From Escherichia phage ST20: a stretch of 44,517 nt of DNA. Where the stretch lies: sequence record MF153391.1. The stretch is one strand, 5' to 3'. Shown in pieces: positions 1-44,517 of the stretch. Position 1 is the first letter of the stretch. Each line of letters opens with the position of its first letter. The position numbers and the translations under genes are program-made. The notes under the pieces are model-generated. The model was not told where the DNA came from, made no database searches, and was given only the letters and a program-made list of their open reading frames with translations.

Positions 1-77
1 GCCACGCCAACATATTTTCTGGCCTGACATCGCCGTTTGGGGCACTGCCGTACAGAATGCAGTCATTATAGCAATCC
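1..77. repeat. Terminal 77-bp exact direct repeat (copy 1), identical to 44441-44517; consistent with circular closure or terminal redundancy
   Basis: First 77 nt of the window are identical to the last 77 nt by direct reading. Confidence 0.9.
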
Positions 78-139
78 ATAAAGTTCTTTACGGCGGCGGC
101 CTTGTCTAACGTTTTTGTAATAGCGTCTTTTTCTGTCAT
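1..139 (-). CDS. Hypothetical small protein, N-terminal part (ATG at 139-137); the frame runs off the window start and continues in the right-end copy
   Basis: Hand translation MTEKDAITKTLDKAAAVKNFMDCYNDCILYGSAPNGDVRPENMLAW...; its ATG overlaps the TGA of the upstream gene (ATGA); not in the ORF track because it is split by the window edge. Confidence 0.35.
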   Translation of the reverse strand, partial: MTEKDAITKTLDKAAAVKNFMDCYNDCILYGSAPNGDVRPENMLAW

Positions 140-372
140 TCCCCACTCTCCCCTTTGGCAATGCGTTGCTCGGTTTTAGTTATACCCCGGCGCGTGAATA
201 ACACCGGGCTTGTCTTAACGTGTGTCATAAGACGGTTGTTATAAATTACATGACGCTCGCAGTTCACGTCTTTGCTGTACTTCGCAATCGTCATTTCGTT
301 GATGCCTGTTTGTCGGCATGTCTCCGCCATCGTGCCAAATTCTTTTATCAGGTTCGGAATGCTGGTAATCAT
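136..372 (-). CDS. Small putative DNA-binding protein (helix-turn-helix-like segment)
   Basis: ORF track 136..396; first ATG is at 372 with GAGGA about 10 nt upstream; segment TMAETCRQTGINEMTIAKY resembles an HTH. Confidence 0.45.
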   Translation of the reverse strand: MITSIPNLIKEFGTMAETCRQTGINEMTIAKYSKDVNCERHVIYNNRLMTHVKTSPVLFTRRGITKTEQRIAKGESGE

Positions 373-1380: not shown

Positions 1381-1612
1381 TTTTGTACCTCTGAGGCAGT
1401 TTATACGTATTGACCAGCCGCGCGTCTGCTTTCATCTCATCGATGAACTTCGGCAGTTCTCCGTGCTGGCAATTAAATAGCCACCACTGGTCACATATGC
1501 TTTGAGGGATTGCAAGTTCGTAGGTAATACCAAGCTCACGCATTACGGTTTGGGGATGTCGGGTTTCACCCGCATAATACGCACCAATGCTGTCATATCG
1601 TAAATGTTTCAT
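1373..1612 (-). CDS. Hypothetical early protein
   Basis: ORF track 1373..1627; ATG at 1612 lies inside the recurring junction GGAGAGAAGAAATGA (SD plus ATGA overlap). Confidence 0.45.
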   Translation of the reverse strand: MKHLRYDSIGAYYAGETRHPQTVMRELGITYELAIPQSICDQWWLFNCQHGELPKFIDEMKADARLVNTYKLPQRYKND

Positions 1613-1764
1613 TTCTTCTCTCCCCACATGCGATTGAGATACTTGTTCTTGTCAGGCCCGGGGAAACTGTTACGTTTCATCAGTTCCTCGCGTGTCGGGA
1701 ACGGGGTGTGGCTGACTTTACGACCTACTCGTAACGGCTGGCTTGCTGGGCCTTGTTCGCTCAT
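1609..1764 (-). CDS. Hypothetical 51-aa protein (below the ORF-track length cutoff)
   Basis: Hand translation MSEQGPASQPLRVGRKVSHTPFPTREELMKRNSFPGPDKNKYLNRMWGEKK; bounded at both ends by the same junction 15-mer. Confidence 0.4.
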   Translation of the reverse strand: MSEQGPASQPLRVGRKVSHTPFPTREELMKRNSFPGPDKNKYLNRMWGEKK

Positions 1765-2045
1765 TTCTTCTCTCCTATGTATCCAGTTACTGCGCTCCCG
1801 CTGTTAGGGATCCCGTTTATATCATCAACAACTATCGTATCTTTGCTTATACAGCGTCTGTAATAATCTTCGGAATTGCGCTCACCTAGATTAAGCACCC
1901 ACTCCATCCCTTCGCCGTCTGCATCCCACGGGCATTGATGTTTAGCCAACACCTGTTTCCAGTCCGCGCGGTCTATGCGAGAAAGTGTCTTATGCTTTCG
2001 CGACACAACCCTATAACCCGCGCTAATTAACTGTTGGTTTGTCAT
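1761..2045 (-). CDS. Hypothetical early protein
   Basis: ORF track; ATG at 2045 inside the junction 15-mer; C-terminus ...GEKK. Confidence 0.5.
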   Translation of the reverse strand: MTNQQLISAGYRVVSRKHKTLSRIDRADWKQVLAKHQCPWDADGEGMEWVLNLGERNSEDYYRRCISKDTIVVDDINGIPNSGSAVTGYIGEKK

Positions 2046-2251
2046 TTCTTCTCTCCTGCAAACTTAAATTTAGCCTCGAACTCCTTTCTACCAACACAAT
2101 ATTCCAAATAGGATTCATTGAATTTTATCAATGGGTGGTCCGCAATAAGCACGTGGTCCAACCCAACCGCGGTTACGATGAATCTGGCGTTGCCCTCTCC
2201 ATCCCACGAGTAATCACTCTTATAGATGCCACCGATAGTAACGTTGTTCAT
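2042..2251 (-). CDS. Hypothetical early protein
   Basis: ORF track; ATG at 2251 inside the junction 15-mer; C-terminus ...GEKK. Confidence 0.5.
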   Translation of the reverse strand: MNNVTIGGIYKSDYSWDGEGNARFIVTAVGLDHVLIADHPLIKFNESYLEYCVGRKEFEAKFKFAGEKK

Positions 2252-2397
2252 TTCTTCTCTCCTGCATAAGCCGCTTTCAGTGTCTGCATCGCGGCGAACC
2301 AGAACGCGTCCGCGGGGATGCTGTTGCTCAGGTTACTAACGGCGATGCGTGCCATCAGTTGTGCATCTTTGAATGCTTCGATGTCTGTGATTTTCAT
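2248..2397 (-). CDS. Hypothetical 49-aa protein, first gene of the leftward small-gene operon
   Basis: Hand translation MKITDIEAFKDAQLMARIAVSNLSNSIPADAFWFAAMQTLKAAYAGEKK; GGAGTAGAGAAG upstream; sits just downstream of the promoter at 2431-2459. Confidence 0.4.
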   Translation of the reverse strand: MKITDIEAFKDAQLMARIAVSNLSNSIPADAFWFAAMQTLKAAYAGEKK

Positions 2398-3632: not shown

Positions 3633-3670
3633 TCCTCCAGGTGCGTATTAAGTATGCAGTAACTGGAGGA
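3633..3670 (-). promoter_or_regulatory. Inverted repeat that can sequester the holin Shine-Dalgarno in the mRNA
   Basis: TCCTCCAG at 3633-3640 and CTGGAGGA at 3663-3670; on the minus-strand transcript an upstream UCCUCCAG pairs with the SD CUGGAGGA. Confidence 0.4.
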
Positions 3671-3701: not shown

Positions 3702-3995
3702 TTATTTATGACGCCAGATGTACTGTCGTCTCTGTGGTTTAGTCGGAATATCATCATACCCCAGCGATTTCCAGTAATTGAATAACCGATTAGCGATTGC
3801 TGCGCGTTCCTGTGTCTTGAACTCACCGAGATTCACGGCCTTCCCGTTCTGGAATCCACCGGCGCGTATGGCTTTGCGTCTGGCCTGAATCTCTGGGTAC
3901 AGTGCGTTATGGCGGCGCTTGTGTATTCTGGTGTTCGCTCTCGGTGACAGCGGCGCAAGGCCGCTTCGTTTCAGGATGTCAGTTGCAAGGCTCAT
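3702..3995 (-). CDS. Hypothetical basic protein, possibly AP2-like DNA binding
   Basis: ORF track 3702..4052, internal ATG at 3995; segment GKAVNLGEFKTQERAAIANRLF loosely resembles AP2-type domains. Confidence 0.35.
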   Translation of the reverse strand: MSLATDILKRSGLAPLSPRANTRIHKRRHNALYPEIQARRKAIRAGGFQNGKAVNLGEFKTQERAAIANRLFNYWKSLGYDDIPTKPQRRQYIWRHK

Positions 3996-4346: not shown

Positions 4347-4550
4347 TTATTTCTCCTGTTTACCAAGTCGCTTAGGTGAGCAGATAGCGCGTACCTCTGA
4401 ATCGTTGGGCTTGTCACCCTGAAACAGAAAGTGCGCGTTCTCTGCGGCACGTGCCGCTGACTGGCACGCCTCCATCGAATAGAACGTTTCTGTTGCCGCT
4501 AGTTGCATATGGCCCGTGGACAGTACCCAGATAAAGAGGATGCTGGTCAT
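4347..4550 (-). CDS. Hypothetical protein with hydrophobic N-terminus
   Basis: ORF track 4347..4607; ATG at 4550 in ATGA overlap with the upstream stop. Confidence 0.35.
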   Translation of the reverse strand: MTSILFIWVLSTGHMQLAATETFYSMEACQSAARAAENAHFLFQGDKPNDSEVRAICSPKRLGKQEK

Positions 4551-5020
4551 TTCTTTAACCCGCATATTCTGCACATCATTACGGCGCCCCCATTGTAAAA
4601 GCACCATTCGTGGCTACATTTCTGGGTATCTTCCTTACGGCTACCAGACGGCGCAGAGCCATCTGTTACTACATAATAGAAACTGTAGGGCCATCCTTGA
4701 GTATCTTCTTTACGACTACCAGATGGCTCAGGCCCGTGTTCACCTTTACGGATAAGTTTGTACGCCTCCACGTCACCGGTAGCTTCGGCCAACGCCAGAT
4801 GTAGTTCCTTAACTTGCCCTGTCAGGTGTGATATGTGCTCAGATTTCTTAATGTTGTCTTCCTGTAACTCGTCCACCAGCTCCGACATATCACGTAACTG
4901 GTTCTTAAGTGACTGCACCTCATGCGCCAGGTCTTCACACTGTTTCTTGTACGTGTTGTTAGTTACCTGCTGCCGTAGCTGGTCGATCAGATACTCGAAT
5001 ACTTCGTTTTTAGTGTTCAT
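4547..5020 (-). CDS. Hypothetical coiled-coil protein with internal tandem repeat (PSGSRKEDTQ twice)
   Basis: ORF track; repeated peptide and matching DNA repeat around 4614-4725. Confidence 0.5.
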   Translation of the reverse strand: MNTKNEVFEYLIDQLRQQVTNNTYKKQCEDLAHEVQSLKNQLRDMSELVDELQEDNIKKSEHISHLTGQVKELHLALAEATGDVEAYKLIRKGEHGPEPSGSRKEDTQGWPYSFYYVVTDGSAPSGSRKEDTQKCSHEWCFYNGGAVMMCRICGLKK

Positions 5021-6726: not shown

Positions 6727-6858
6727 GTGGCCTTCCGGACGCGTCAGCGAAACTACACTCAGGGCTAATGCCCCGCTCCGTTTCCTGCCGTGACACGGTC
6801 GCTTGTTCATACTTCACAAGCTCAGGTGGAGCTTAGCACATTTTTAGTGAAAAGTCAA
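6727..6858 (+). repeat. Structured non-coding element, copy 1 (about 130 bp); possible small RNA ending in a terminator-like hairpin
   Basis: Near-identical to 38987-39120; hairpins GGGC-TAAT-GCCC (6762-6773), CCGTG-A-CACGG (6788-6798), AAGCTC-AGGTG-GAGCTT (6818-6834), then TTTTT at 6841-6845. Confidence 0.6.
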
Positions 6859-10441: not shown

Positions 10442-10471
10442 TTGACAACATGAATAGTTAGCTATTATAGT
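10442..10471 (+). promoter_or_regulatory. Rightward promoter TTGACA-(17/18)-TATAGT with inverted repeat AATAG-TTAG-CTATT
   Basis: 22-bp core TGAATAGTTAGCTATTATAGTT identical to 13153-13174. Confidence 0.55.
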
Positions 10472-10504
10472 TAGCCCATACCAAACGAGAGGAGAGAGAA
10501 ACAA

Positions 10505-13144: not shown

Positions 13145-13173
13145 TTGACACCTGAATAGTTAGCTATTATAGT
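13145..13173 (+). promoter_or_regulatory. Rightward promoter TTGACA-17-TATAGT with inverted repeat AATAG-TTAG-CTATT
   Basis: Direct reading; same core as 10442-10471. Confidence 0.55.
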
Positions 13174-13228
13174 TCTAATCACTGGCCGGGCAGTTCCCGG
13201 AGTAAACTGAAAACTGAGGAATCGAGAT

Positions 13229-16863: not shown

Positions 16864-17913
16864 ATGAACTATTACAATGAGTGGGATAAAGGCGCAGCCG
16901 CGTGGCTGCGTGAATTAATAAAACAGGGGCATATACCTTTTGGAGTTGTAGATGAAAGAAGCATTACCGAAGTTAAGCCAGAAGACCTCGACGGGTTCAC
17001 CCAGTGTCATTTTTTCGCTGGTATCGGCGGCTGGCCTCTCGCGCTCAGACTTGCGGGAGTTTCGGAAGATACGCCTATCTGGACGGGAAGCCCGCCGTGC
17101 CAACCGTTTAGCGCGGCAGGAAAGCAACTCGGACAGTTCGACCCAAGACACCTCGCGCCCGTATTCCTTGACCTCATCAGCGAGTGCCGCCCTCCAGTCC
17201 TCTTTGGGGAACAGGTTGCGCCAGCAATTGCAAAATCGTGGATGTGCGATTTACAAACTCACCTGGAAGGAGAAGACTACGCCGTCGGGTTTGCCGTACT
17301 CCCAGCTTGTAGCGTCGGCGCACCGCACAAACGCGACCGACTTTTCTTCGGCGCGCATAGATTGGCCCACGCCAGCGGTATCACTGATAACAAACGACGT
17401 GAACATGCGCAGCACAGACGGCAGGACGAAACCGAACAAACTGGGGTGGGCCGCCGCGATGGCGGCATGGGCGACGCCGACCGCGAACGACTTCAAAGGG
17501 AGCGGAGAGACAGTGATTCGCAAGGACGGAAAGGACAGAACATTCGACAGGCTGGACTATTCAACGGAACAGGGTCTGAAACTGACAAATTGGCCCACCC
17601 CTCGCAGTGCCGACGGGGAGAAGAACGTGAGGACATTAGAAGGCTCGATGTCAGAGATTCAGAGGAAGGGTGGACCCCAGGACGTGGCGCAAGCGGCGGC
17701 TATAGCACAACCAATACGCATCACGGCTTCTGGTCAGATACTGACTGGCTCGGATGCCGGGATGGAAAATTCAGGCCAGTTGAACCCGGCACATTCCCGC
17801 TGGCTAATGGGGTACCCGCCCGAGTGGGACGATTGCGCGGTTACGGCAATGCCATCGTCCCGCAAGTAGCCGCTGAATTTATAAAGGCGTTCATGGGGGT
17901 TGTAAATGTCTAA
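16864..17913 (+). CDS. DNA (cytosine-5)-methyltransferase; the middle of the gene appears to be encoded in the overlapping frame 16952-17869
   Basis: ORF track frame 1: [33 protein letters not shown], and C-terminal [13 protein letters not shown]; the frame-1 middle is Arg/Asp/Glu-rich low complexity while frame 2 carries WPTP-type repeats and [10 protein letters not shown]. Confidence 0.6.
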
Positions 17914-19330
17914 GTTTCAAAGGCGCGAGTACCAAAAGCTCATGACTTCGTTCATGTTGCAGCACCCTCGCTGTAATATTTGGGCTTCGATGGGTAGCGG
18001 CAAGTCGGGGTCAACGTTGTGGGTTCTCAACCGACTGTTCCGTAATGGGCAACTTAATGACGACGACCGAGTGTTAATTCTGGCCCCTTTACGTGTTGCG
18101 TCAGGTACGTGGCCAGCGGAACAGGCACGTTGGAACTTCCCGTGTCTGAGTGTCGTAGATGCAACTGGTTCAGAGAAGCGCCGCATCGCGGCGCTGGAGT
18201 CGGATGCTAACGTGGTGTGCACGAACTACGAAGTTATCGAGTGGCTGATTGACTACTACGGCAAAGATGACTGGCCTTTTACCGTTATCGTTGCCGATGA
18301 AAGCACGAAACTGAAATCATTCCGCAGCCGTTCGGGTGGTAGCAAGCGTGCAAAGGCGCTCAGTAAGGTTGCGTTCGGAAAGGTTAAGCGTTTCATCAAC
18401 CTGACGGGCACACCGTCGCCAAATGGCCTCAAGGACTTGTGGGGCCAGAACTGGTTTATCGACGCTGGCGAGCGCCTTGGTTCTTCATACACGGCATTCA
18501 CAGACCGCTGGTTTAACTCAGTACAGAAAGGCAAATCTGCTATGGCGCGTGAATACCATGCGCGCCCGGGCGCAGACAATGAGATTCATCAGAAGATGAA
18601 GGACATTAGTCTCACAATTGACGCTGCCGAGTGGTTCGGTTGCGAAGCGCCTGTTATCGTGCCGGTTGAAATCGACCTGCCGAAGAAAGCGCGCCAGGCG
18701 TATATCGATATGGAGGAGAAGTTATTCGCGGAACTGGAGAGCGGAGAAGTTGAGGCGGCTAACGCCGCGGCGAAGACGTCTAAGTGTCTGCAGATTGCCT
18801 CCGGTGCCGTATATGTATCAGGACCAGACGGAGAAGCAACCAAAGACTGGGAGAAAGTGCACGACACGAAACTGGATGCGCTGGAGTCCATTGTCGAGGA
18901 GTTGCAGGGTGCACCGTTGCTTGTGGCCTATCAGTTTAAGCACGAACTGGAGCGCATCCTTAAGCGTTTTCCACAGGCGCAGGCGTTCGCCAAAGGCGCT
19001 AAGGGTAATAAGCAGATGGAAGCGTGGAACCGTGGTGAGATACCTATGCTCCTGATACACCCAGCTTCTGCGGGCCACGGGCTGTCGCTACAACACGGCG
19101 GACATCACATGGCCTTTATGAGTCAGGGATGGAACTTGGAACACTATTTGCAGGTTATCGAACGCATAGGTCCGGTAAGGCAGATGCAATCTGGATACAA
19201 ACGGTCTGTATTCATTTATCAAATAATAGCCCGAAATACTCTTGATGAAGTTGTCGCCGCTCGTACAGACGAGAAAAGGTCTGTACAGGACGAACTACTT
19301 AATTATATGAAGCGCAGAGGTAAGAAATGA
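17906..19330 (+). CDS. SNF2/DEAD-like superfamily 2 helicase
   Basis: ORF track 474 aa; Walker A MGSGKSG and motif II VIVADEST. Confidence 0.7.
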   Translation: MSKFQRREYQKLMTSFMLQHPRCNIWASMGSGKSGSTLWVLNRLFRNGQLNDDDRVLILAPLRVASGTWPAEQARWNFPCLSVVDATGSEKRRIAALESDANVVCTNYEVIEWLIDYYGKDDWPFTVIVADESTKLKSFRSRSGGSKRAKALSKVAFGKVKRFINLTGTPSPNGLKDLWGQNWFIDAGERLGSSYTAFTDRWFNSVQKGKSAMAREYHARPGADNEIHQKMKDISLTIDAAEWFGCEAPVIVPVEIDLPKKARQAYIDMEEKLFAELESGEVEAANAAAKTSKCLQIASGAVYVSGPDGEATKDWEKVHDTKLDALESIVEELQGAPLLVAYQFKHELERILKRFPQAQAFAKGAKGNKQMEAWNRGEIPMLLIHPASAGHGLSLQHGGHHMAFMSQGWNLEHYLQVIERIGPVRQMQSGYKRSVFIYQIIARNTLDEVVAARTDEKRSVQDELLNYMKRRGKK

Positions 19331-19512
19331 AACTTAATGTTGGTGATGAAATATACAGCGTACATTCTTTCAATACTTTCTACATCGAGTACATATCAAA
19401 AGACGGCAACAGCTTTGTTTTGGTAAGCTCGGACGGTAAATACGAAAAGTCACGCTGCTACACGCTGCCAGACATAAAGCGCAGTTTCAAGAAAAGCGAA
19501 GGTAAGAAATGA
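19327..19512 (+). CDS. Hypothetical protein
   Basis: ORF track; ATGA overlaps at both ends with a GGTAAGAAATGA junction. Confidence 0.5.
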   Translation: MKLNVGDEIYSVHSFNTFYIEYISKDGNSFVLVSSDGKYEKSRCYTLPDIKRSFKKSEGKK

Positions 19513-38986: not shown

Positions 38987-39120
38987 TGGCCCTTCCGAAC
39001 GCGTCAGCGTAACTACACTCAGGACTTACGTCCCGCTCCGTTACCTGCCCGCGCCGCGGTCGCTTGTTCATACTTCACAAGCTCAGGTGGAGCTTATCAT
39101 ATTTTTAGTGAAAAGTCAAC
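38987..39120 (+). repeat. Structured non-coding element, copy 2 (about 130 bp)
   Basis: Near-identical to 6727-6858; hairpins GGAC-TTAC-GTCC (39022-39033) and CCGCG-C-CGCGG (39049-39059) carry compensatory changes relative to copy 1. Confidence 0.6.
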
Positions 39121-44384: not shown

Positions 44385-44517
44385 CTACCTTTTATCCATG
44401 TACTCATCGACTATGTCAATTATGTACCTGTGCTCTACAAGCCACGCCAACATATTTTCTGGCCTGACATCGCCGTTTGGGGCACTGCCGTACAGAATGC
44501 AGTCATTATAGCAATCC
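44385..44517 (-). CDS. C-terminal part of the wrap-around small ORF whose ATG lies at 139
   Basis: Same frame as 1-139 across the 77-bp overlap; ends ...LVEHRYIIDIVDEYMDKR with stop at 44385-44387. Confidence 0.3.
   Translation of the reverse strand, partial: DCYNDCILYGSAPNGDVRPENMLAWLVEHRYIIDIVDEYMDKR
44441..44517. repeat. Terminal 77-bp exact direct repeat (copy 2)
   Basis: Identical to 1-77. Confidence 0.9.

Follow-up and report, generated by a model that had tools for sequence, protein, structure and literature searches.

Escherichia phage ST20 (sequence record MF153391.1, 44,517 nt, the whole of which we term the window) is a lytic siphovirus that infects E. coli and resembles Kagunavirus (Guernseyvirinae). 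Its minus strand carries an operon whose first five small genes, here termed A to E, are linked in a row by four copies of one 15-nt sequence, TCATTTCTTCTCTCC. In related phages whole genes are present, absent or moved, with this junction as their boundary. We favour the reading, at a probability of roughly 0.65, that the 15-mer is a translational-coupling junction copied together with small gene cassettes, and also a short homology linker through which the cassettes are exchanged. In other words, the junction marks, and probably mediates, cassette exchange. A first-pass annotation, made from the letters of the window, had described the repeat and its dual coding role but passed over what appears to be its main significance, as the exact boundary at which relatives have gained, lost or reordered genes.

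The four exact copies lie on the minus strand at 2248-2262 (junction A|B), 2042-2056 (B|C), 1761-1775 (C|D) and 1609-1623 (D|E), and in that strand all read GGAGAGAAGAAATGA. They are confined to 650 bp, as first annotated, and the window holds no further copy at up to two mismatches. By chance 0.05 matches would be expected, the average over 100 dinucleotide-preserving shuffles, not one of which reached four. The repeat is exactly 15 nt long, and two copies share 18 nt (GCAGGAGAGAAGAAATGA).

Read as GGA GAG AAG AAA TGA, the junction gives the last codons and the stop of the upstream gene, and four consecutive minus-strand open reading frames (ORFs; 49, 69, 94 and 51 amino acids, aa) terminate in G-E-K-K. 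At all four junctions the TGA stop overlaps the next ATG as ATGA; ORF ends and starts coincide, with zero gaps. The Shine-Dalgarno sequence of the downstream gene is found within the upstream gene, as AGGAG at A|B, B|C and C|D and as GGGAG at D|E, and is separated from the ATG in each case by the 7-nt spacer AGAAGAA, a workable distance from a start codon. The first-pass annotation had claimed this threefold role (peptide end, Shine-Dalgarno sequence and stop-start overlap) and a run of at least four proteins of 49-94 aa ending in GEKK; both claims hold at the four consecutive same-strand junctions. Translational coupling is what we infer at these sites. The same genome has about 20 other ATGA junctions, whose upstream 11-mers all differ from the 15-mer, and coupling therefore does not need this particular sequence.

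The 15-mer itself contains neither a promoter nor a hairpin, no attC-like inverted repeat was found in it, and an Rfam search of the window detected no RNA family. Two other roles for it were considered and rejected. All local genes lie on the minus strand and a terminator-like match at 1747-1763 is within chance expectation, leaving no case for a function of the motif on the plus strand. A −1 frameshift fusing successive genes is rejected from the sequence, because the heptamer AAG AAA T is not slippery in the required frame and Lys-tRNA would not re-pair on GAA.

The genes joined in this way are not homologous to one another. A, B, C and D belong to four different PHROG families, and in the pairwise protein comparison proposed in the first-pass annotation, run as an all-against-all BLASTP search, the small proteins have only their last 4-9 residues in common (E-values of at least 0.09). 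Gene A (2248-2397, minus strand, as are all five; 49 aa; PHROG 2180) is the first of the operon, ends AYAGEKK and has 56 homologues in related loci. Gene B (2042-2251; 69 aa; PHROG 20019; ending FAGEKK) is a cassette missing from most relatives. Gene C (1761-2045; 94 aa; ending GYIGEKK) is a cassette with a partial match to PHROG 8098, of whose 237-position profile it covers only positions 141-209; elsewhere, therefore, it may be a domain of a longer protein. Gene D (1609-1764; 51 aa; ending MWGEKK) belongs to the Pfam family DUF2737. Gene E (1373-1612; 79 aa) is a rare cassette that starts at the fourth junction copy and is joined to the following gene, F, by a different 8-nt overlap, ATGACTGA. 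No DNA match for C or E was found in 50,697 GenBank phage records, and these two were placed through one IMG/VR locus (L014) and metagenome contigs only; among indexed metagenome assemblies, however, 75 blocks hold the identical C protein, in most cases in the order A|C|D. The small genes are real, as judged from the PHROG and DUF2737 matches and from substitutions concentrated at third codon positions: variable columns among relatives at positions 1/2/3 number 21/14/36 in A, 16/14/31 in B, 0/3/10 in C and 17/11/33 in D.

The comparison of gene order covered about 70 related loci: 55 from IMG/VR with a gene A homologue (cited by L numbers), four GenBank relatives and the metagenome contigs carrying C. 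The junction is conserved in most of the 59 IMG/VR and GenBank loci, an outcome in keeping with the first-pass annotation, which had proposed such a comparison. Gene A nearly always ends in the 15-mer, and what varies is the gene that follows. The order is A|D in L003 and L011, A|B|D in L004 and L008, A|C|D|E in L014, A|f116|D in L021 and A|B|f31|D in L001 (f numbers denote gene families); metagenome contigs have A|C|D and A|C|f31|D, and L056 has A|D|B', with a B-type gene placed after D. Close relatives carry from 0 to 4 copies of the 15-mer per genome, and the order of the window, A|B|C|D|E, has the highest junction copy number seen. Where relatives are aligned, the ends of whole-gene insertions and deletions fall inside the 15-mer. 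Counted over 60 loci at no more than one mismatch, the junction ends genes of five unrelated families and starts genes of 14, in 24 upstream-to-downstream pairings.

The best-matching relative of the window switches at each gene boundary of the operon. Although 436 GenBank phage records match this stretch, none covers more than 58% of it; the matches come in two to four pieces, and GenBank phage matches break at 1609-1618. A recent parent was looked for and none was found. Each segment is 89-98% identical to a different relative, and therefore no single recombination event can be dated. In the Jerseyvirus locus L040, gene A ends in GGAGAACAAAAATGA and an inserted gene B ends in AGAGAACAAAAATGA, which is the local variant of the junction and not the Kagunavirus one; this pattern is as expected if the B-end junction had crossed over with the resident A-end junction. 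Jerseyviruses accept other sequences at the same junctions (GGAGAACAAAAATGA, GGTAAGAAGAAATGA), and in one distant relative A, C and D follow each other in this order but are joined through TAATG and TAA-N5-ATG. A scan of IMG/VR with the bare 15-mer gave more than 120 mostly single, unrelated matches; we took these as noise in a very large collection and did not use them.

Two further observations concern variation in the same region. Some relatives have an extra small gene before A (L189 596-784; L001 3187-3384; L002 2204-2392), joined by another ATGA junction (GGAGATGATAAATGA in L189), and therefore the slot ahead of A is variable too. In L040 at 3845-3890, compared with L039, the gene f41/f43 (protein beginning MKVYIV) is internally deleted between two 7-nt direct repeats, CGGATGG, a separate line of evidence that deletions here are driven by very short repeats.

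The favoured reading can be put as a sequence of steps. A single sigma-70-like promoter following the terminator of the lysis genes would give a polycistronic mRNA of gap-free small genes. A ribosome finishing one gene would sit on (A)GGAG 7 nt before the overlapping ATG, and the next gene would probably be re-initiated. With the same 15 nt in register at several boundaries, an out-of-register crossover or a template switch could take place between copies, either within one genome or between co-infecting relatives. Such an exchange would add, remove or reorder one or more whole genes, and would automatically preserve the upstream stop together with the downstream ribosome site and start codon. 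The order A|B|C|D|E is then the product to be expected if A|B|D-type and A|C|D|E-type genomes, both of which exist, had crossed over. As for GEKK, a native C-terminal Gly codon would supply GG, the Shine-Dalgarno sequence would complete Gly-Glu, and the A-rich spacer would be read as Lys-Lys.

It is the recombination at the 15-mer that we infer rather than observe, and several points weigh against it. The repeat falls short of the homology that RecA- or Red-type recombination usually requires, and a Pfam scan of 30 ORFs turned up no Rad52-like annealing protein. Just three, B, C and f116, among about nine cassette families found between A and D, have the 15-mer at both ends; f31, f46, f43, f112 and f200 have other right-hand junctions, and exchange therefore also occurs without it. 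Co-variation of the two junctions of a cassette was seen in a single lineage (L040). The junction codons of gene A have third-position conservation of 0.94, 0.81, 0.85 and 1.0, against a gene mean of 0.82, and we dropped the idea of an extra nucleotide constraint on the junction, since its conservation scarcely exceeds that of the remaining gene. Part of the pattern could be explained by random recombination followed by selection for working junctions. A bolder proposal would make the 15-mer a minimal linker and an active, preferred recombination hotspot, and the promoter-proximal region of Guernseyvirinae an integrase-free cassette array, in which replication and recombination proteins encoded by the phage, a DUF2800 PD-(D/E)XK nuclease and an Enc34-type single-strand-binding protein, would catalyse exchanges at ribosome-binding sites and perhaps also give rise to single-cassette mini-circles. 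These two proteins are the only recombination candidates that Pfam identified in the 30 ORFs, and we consider this proposal unlikely.

Another explanation is convergence: the junctions may have arrived independently at one optimal re-initiation sequence, the repeat having no role in recombination and gene content being set by random illegitimate recombination and selection. The sequence is indeed near-ideal as a Shine-Dalgarno sequence with an A-rich spacer and ATGA, and in L180, a phage that is unrelated, purine- and lysine-rich ATGA junctions flank the C homologue (GGTTATAAGAAATGA), as they do the gene for DUF2737 in P22 (GAGGAAAGATAAATG); the 15-mer is moreover missing on one side of many cassettes. 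Yet an optimum of this kind would have to be reconciled with the different upstream sequences at the genome's other ATGA junctions, with an improbable exact identity of 15-18 nt at the ends of five unrelated genes, with a junction variant altered in the same way on either side of B in L040, and with insertion and deletion ends that lie within the repeat itself. We consider convergence as the whole explanation unlikely. The junction may instead be a cis-regulatory RNA site at which a phage or host factor co-regulates the gene set, T4 RegA being a model for a translational repressor and T4 RegB for an endoribonuclease cutting at GGAG. Identity does reach past what ribosome binding needs, and repeated start-associated sequences with a suspected regulatory role are known in Cluster K mycobacteriophages (PMC3203893). 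The element is, however, restricted to one short run of adjacent genes and does not form a dispersed regulon; its copy number differs among close relatives, Jerseyviruses tolerate variant sequences in its place, and no candidate factor was found, all of which makes a regulatory site quite improbable.

Direct repeats on both sides of each unit are also what would be left by tandem duplication and divergence of one gene, or by cassettes moved by a site-specific recombinase, in the manner of integrons, or by a homing endonuclease. One promoter ahead of promoterless cassettes does recall an integron, and an HNH fragment occupies the slot of a second locus (described below) in one relative. The units, however, have no detectable similarity outside the tail, and a tandem or paralogous array is excluded by the different PHROG families and the tail-only BLASTP similarity. 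Mobility is hardly better placed: no site-specific recombinase, integrase, transposase or endonuclease was found in the 30 ORFs scanned against Pfam, the 15-mer lacks an attC-like inverted repeat, and the cassettes encode proteins of 49-94 aa with no nuclease domain. Taken together these origins are very unlikely. Least credible to us is protein-level selection, with GEKK serving as a functional tag at the C-terminus that directs degradation, localisation or interaction. In its favour stands the recurrence of the same last four residues on five unrelated proteins. Selection on the peptide would predict synonymous variants of the four codons, and the opposite is seen: there are almost none, and junction variants in relatives are mostly non-synonymous (GDKK, GENK, GDEK, GEKE, EEKK) or truncating, the genes nonetheless being kept. 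In L056 the A-end junction, GGATAGAAGAAATGA at 3636-3650, makes a stop three codons early with the downstream gene retained, and the EKK tail of A is thus dispensable. D has other ends in relatives (ERKE, RKND, GKKK, GKRK), C homologues without the tail end TGYRG, TGYRGK or TGYRDKTK, and B' of L056 ends GGVESD. The native proteins end at Gly, with EKK set by the junction; as a peptide GEKK is not conserved, and it arises as a by-product of the nucleotide sequence.

The operon has the lysis cassette on one side and the terminase genes on the other, and is preceded by a sigma-70-like promoter of its own. Upstream of it holins and an endolysin are encoded, and the lysis cassette is closed by an intrinsic-terminator-like hairpin on the minus strand at 2482-2511 (CCCGGC, a 9-nt loop, GCCGGG, then T8); this was read from the sequence, the loop limit of our terminator scan being 8, below the 9-nt loop of this hairpin. 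Before gene A, at 2431-2459 on the minus strand, is a sigma-70-like promoter, TTGACT-17-TATATT, with 10 of 12 positions matching the consensus. In phage fBC-Eco01 a terminator is annotated, as a prediction, in the homologous spacer, and predicted promoters are annotated at the equivalent place. For the operon of the window, the site before gene A is the sole promoter-like one apart from a weak one inside the chain, at 1220-1192. Downstream the chain of small genes runs on without gaps up to the terminase genes, and includes a weak NinH-like match (136-372, minus strand).

DUF2737 homologues of gene D occur in P22, HK140, HK106 and Stx phages, and DUF2737 with a weak NinH-like protein is typical of lambdoid nin/ea regions (the P22 ea region, HK140, HK106 and Stx phages). 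By its gene content the operon resembles a lambdoid nin-type region set in a lytic phage. Finding nin/ea-type genes in a siphovirus that is strictly lytic suggests that genes have passed between temperate and lytic phages of enterobacteria. The first 77 bases of the window (1-77) are identical to the last 77 (44441-44517). Most probably this reflects either a contig assembled as a circle, its ends overlapping by k = 77, or a terminal redundancy. Counted once, the genome comes to about 44,440 bp, and the operon of small genes crosses the window ends toward the terminase genes.

The first-pass annotation had also listed variants of the 15-mer at 4547, 19316 and 19498. All three are true ATGA junctions, but as matches to the 15-mer they are far weaker: 4547-4561 (minus strand; GGGTTAAAGAAATGA) has four mismatches, and 19316-19330 (AGAGGTAAGAAATGA) and 19498-19512 (GAAGGTAAGAAATGA), both on the plus strand, have three each. 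They have only AAGAAATGA in common with it. The latter two form a pair of their own. They share an exact 13-mer, AGGTAAGAAATGA, present at both 19318 and 19500. Between its two copies is a 61-aa cassette gene (19327-19512, plus strand), the first copy lying at the end of an SNF2-type helicase gene. In Kagunavirus LM08P2 and phage 590B the 61-aa gene is absent and the helicase gene joins the next gene through one junction copy; in Salmonella phage SE479 an HNH fragment occupies its slot. Most GenBank matches end at 19330 or resume at about 19500-19510. This pair is a second, independent duplicated junction flanking a variable gene. Just upstream of the helicase gene, at 16864-17913 on the plus strand, is a gene for a protein with a C-5 cytosine DNA methyltransferase domain, presumably with an anti-restriction function.

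Two other repeats in the window were noted. A direct repeat of about 120 bp with about 90% identity is found at 6741-6858 and 39001-39119 (plus-strand coordinates), intergenic in both places, one being the divergence point of the early region and the other lying between head genes. On the minus strand it opens with a promoter-like TTGACT-17-TAAGCT; the transcribed part folds just marginally better than shuffles (z = −1.9), and the repeat has no match in Rfam. It may be a duplicated promoter plus leader. An exact 22-mer, TGAATAGTTAGCTATTATAGTT, at 10451-10472 and 13153-13174 (plus strand), upstream of replication-module genes, looks like a repeated promoter or operator.

The locus bears on how phage mosaicism arises. 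Hendrix and Hatfull are said to see its source in random illegitimate recombination followed by selection. The long-standing debate between this view and boundary linkers leans, on the side of illegitimate recombination, partly on linkers having rarely been found (PMC3029335), and the operon described here is a compact and clear case of a linker, of which few are known, in lytic phages of a group with therapeutic use. A single element of 15 nt bounds at least 14 gene families in interchangeable order, with intermediate arrangements existing in nature; therefore the linker hypothesis is directly testable by crosses and amplicon sequencing. The junction also suggests itself as a practical place to insert genes when such phages are engineered. 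Annotators may take from it that small phage proteins with no relation to one another can acquire the same C-terminal tail as a by-product of a junction. Were the hotspot proposal true, translation signals would serve generally as in-frame joints of phage mosaicism.

The nearest known arrangement in translational terms is the ninR region of lambda, where, as Kroger and Hobom reportedly described in 1982, stop-start overlaps of the ATGA type link small genes into a chain. The likeness lies in gap-free, same-strand small genes with the ATGA overlap and with the Shine-Dalgarno sequence inside the upstream gene, and extends to gene content, the operon here holding the nin-region-type DUF2737 and the weak NinH-like match. 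The window differs from ninR in having the same 15 nt at four junctions in a row, which give unrelated proteins a common tail, and in its setting, an operon placed between the lysis and terminase genes of a siphovirus that is strictly lytic. The junction at the P22 DUF2737 gene also differs in sequence from the 15-mer. The integron resemblance is limited to the layout of a promoter followed by promoterless cassettes; neither a tyrosine-recombinase integrase nor attC-type repeats were found.

Short conserved boundary sequences guiding the exchange of lambdoid modules were proposed by Susskind and Botstein (1978) and by Clark (2001, on HK620), as cited in PMC3029335; according to the same source such sequences are not findable at most mosaic boundaries, and the pair gp67/gp68 of Island3, with about 50 bp of common 3′ gene end, is the first mycobacteriophage case. 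That shared end is the closest structural parallel to the 15-mer junction. As with boundary linkers, one short sequence here bounds non-homologous modules and the mosaic breakpoints of relatives coincide with it; unlike them, it is 15 nt long, lies within coding sequence, and combines stop, start and ribosome site. The PeSLs of T4-type phages are repeated intergenic units of a sigma-70 promoter and a stem-loop terminator that mediate shuffling. They too are short repeated elements flanking variable ORFan genes, non-essential and in a hyperplastic region, where recombination between copies gives insertions, deletions and replacements, and exchanges between copies explain the differences among close relatives. 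Each PeSL cassette is, however, its own transcription unit with promoter and terminator in every repeat, whereas the 15-mer has neither and acts in translation, inside coding sequence. The Start-Associated Sequences of Cluster K (GGGATAGGAGCCC), dispersed over half the genome and suspected of binding a regulatory factor (PMC3203893), resemble it as asymmetric repeats of about 13 nt with a Shine-Dalgarno core, a few bases before the ATG of non-structural genes of various families; in the window the sequence is different, the four copies are adjacent, and their number varies among relatives and is tied to gene gain and loss. We found no prior description of the junction in Guernseyvirinae in the literature, which is weak evidence as our coverage was incomplete. 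The element thus combines known ideas (ATGA chains, linkers, PeSLs and Start-Associated Sequences) and introduces no new principle; what is new here is that relatives gain, lose and reorder whole genes exactly at the junction.

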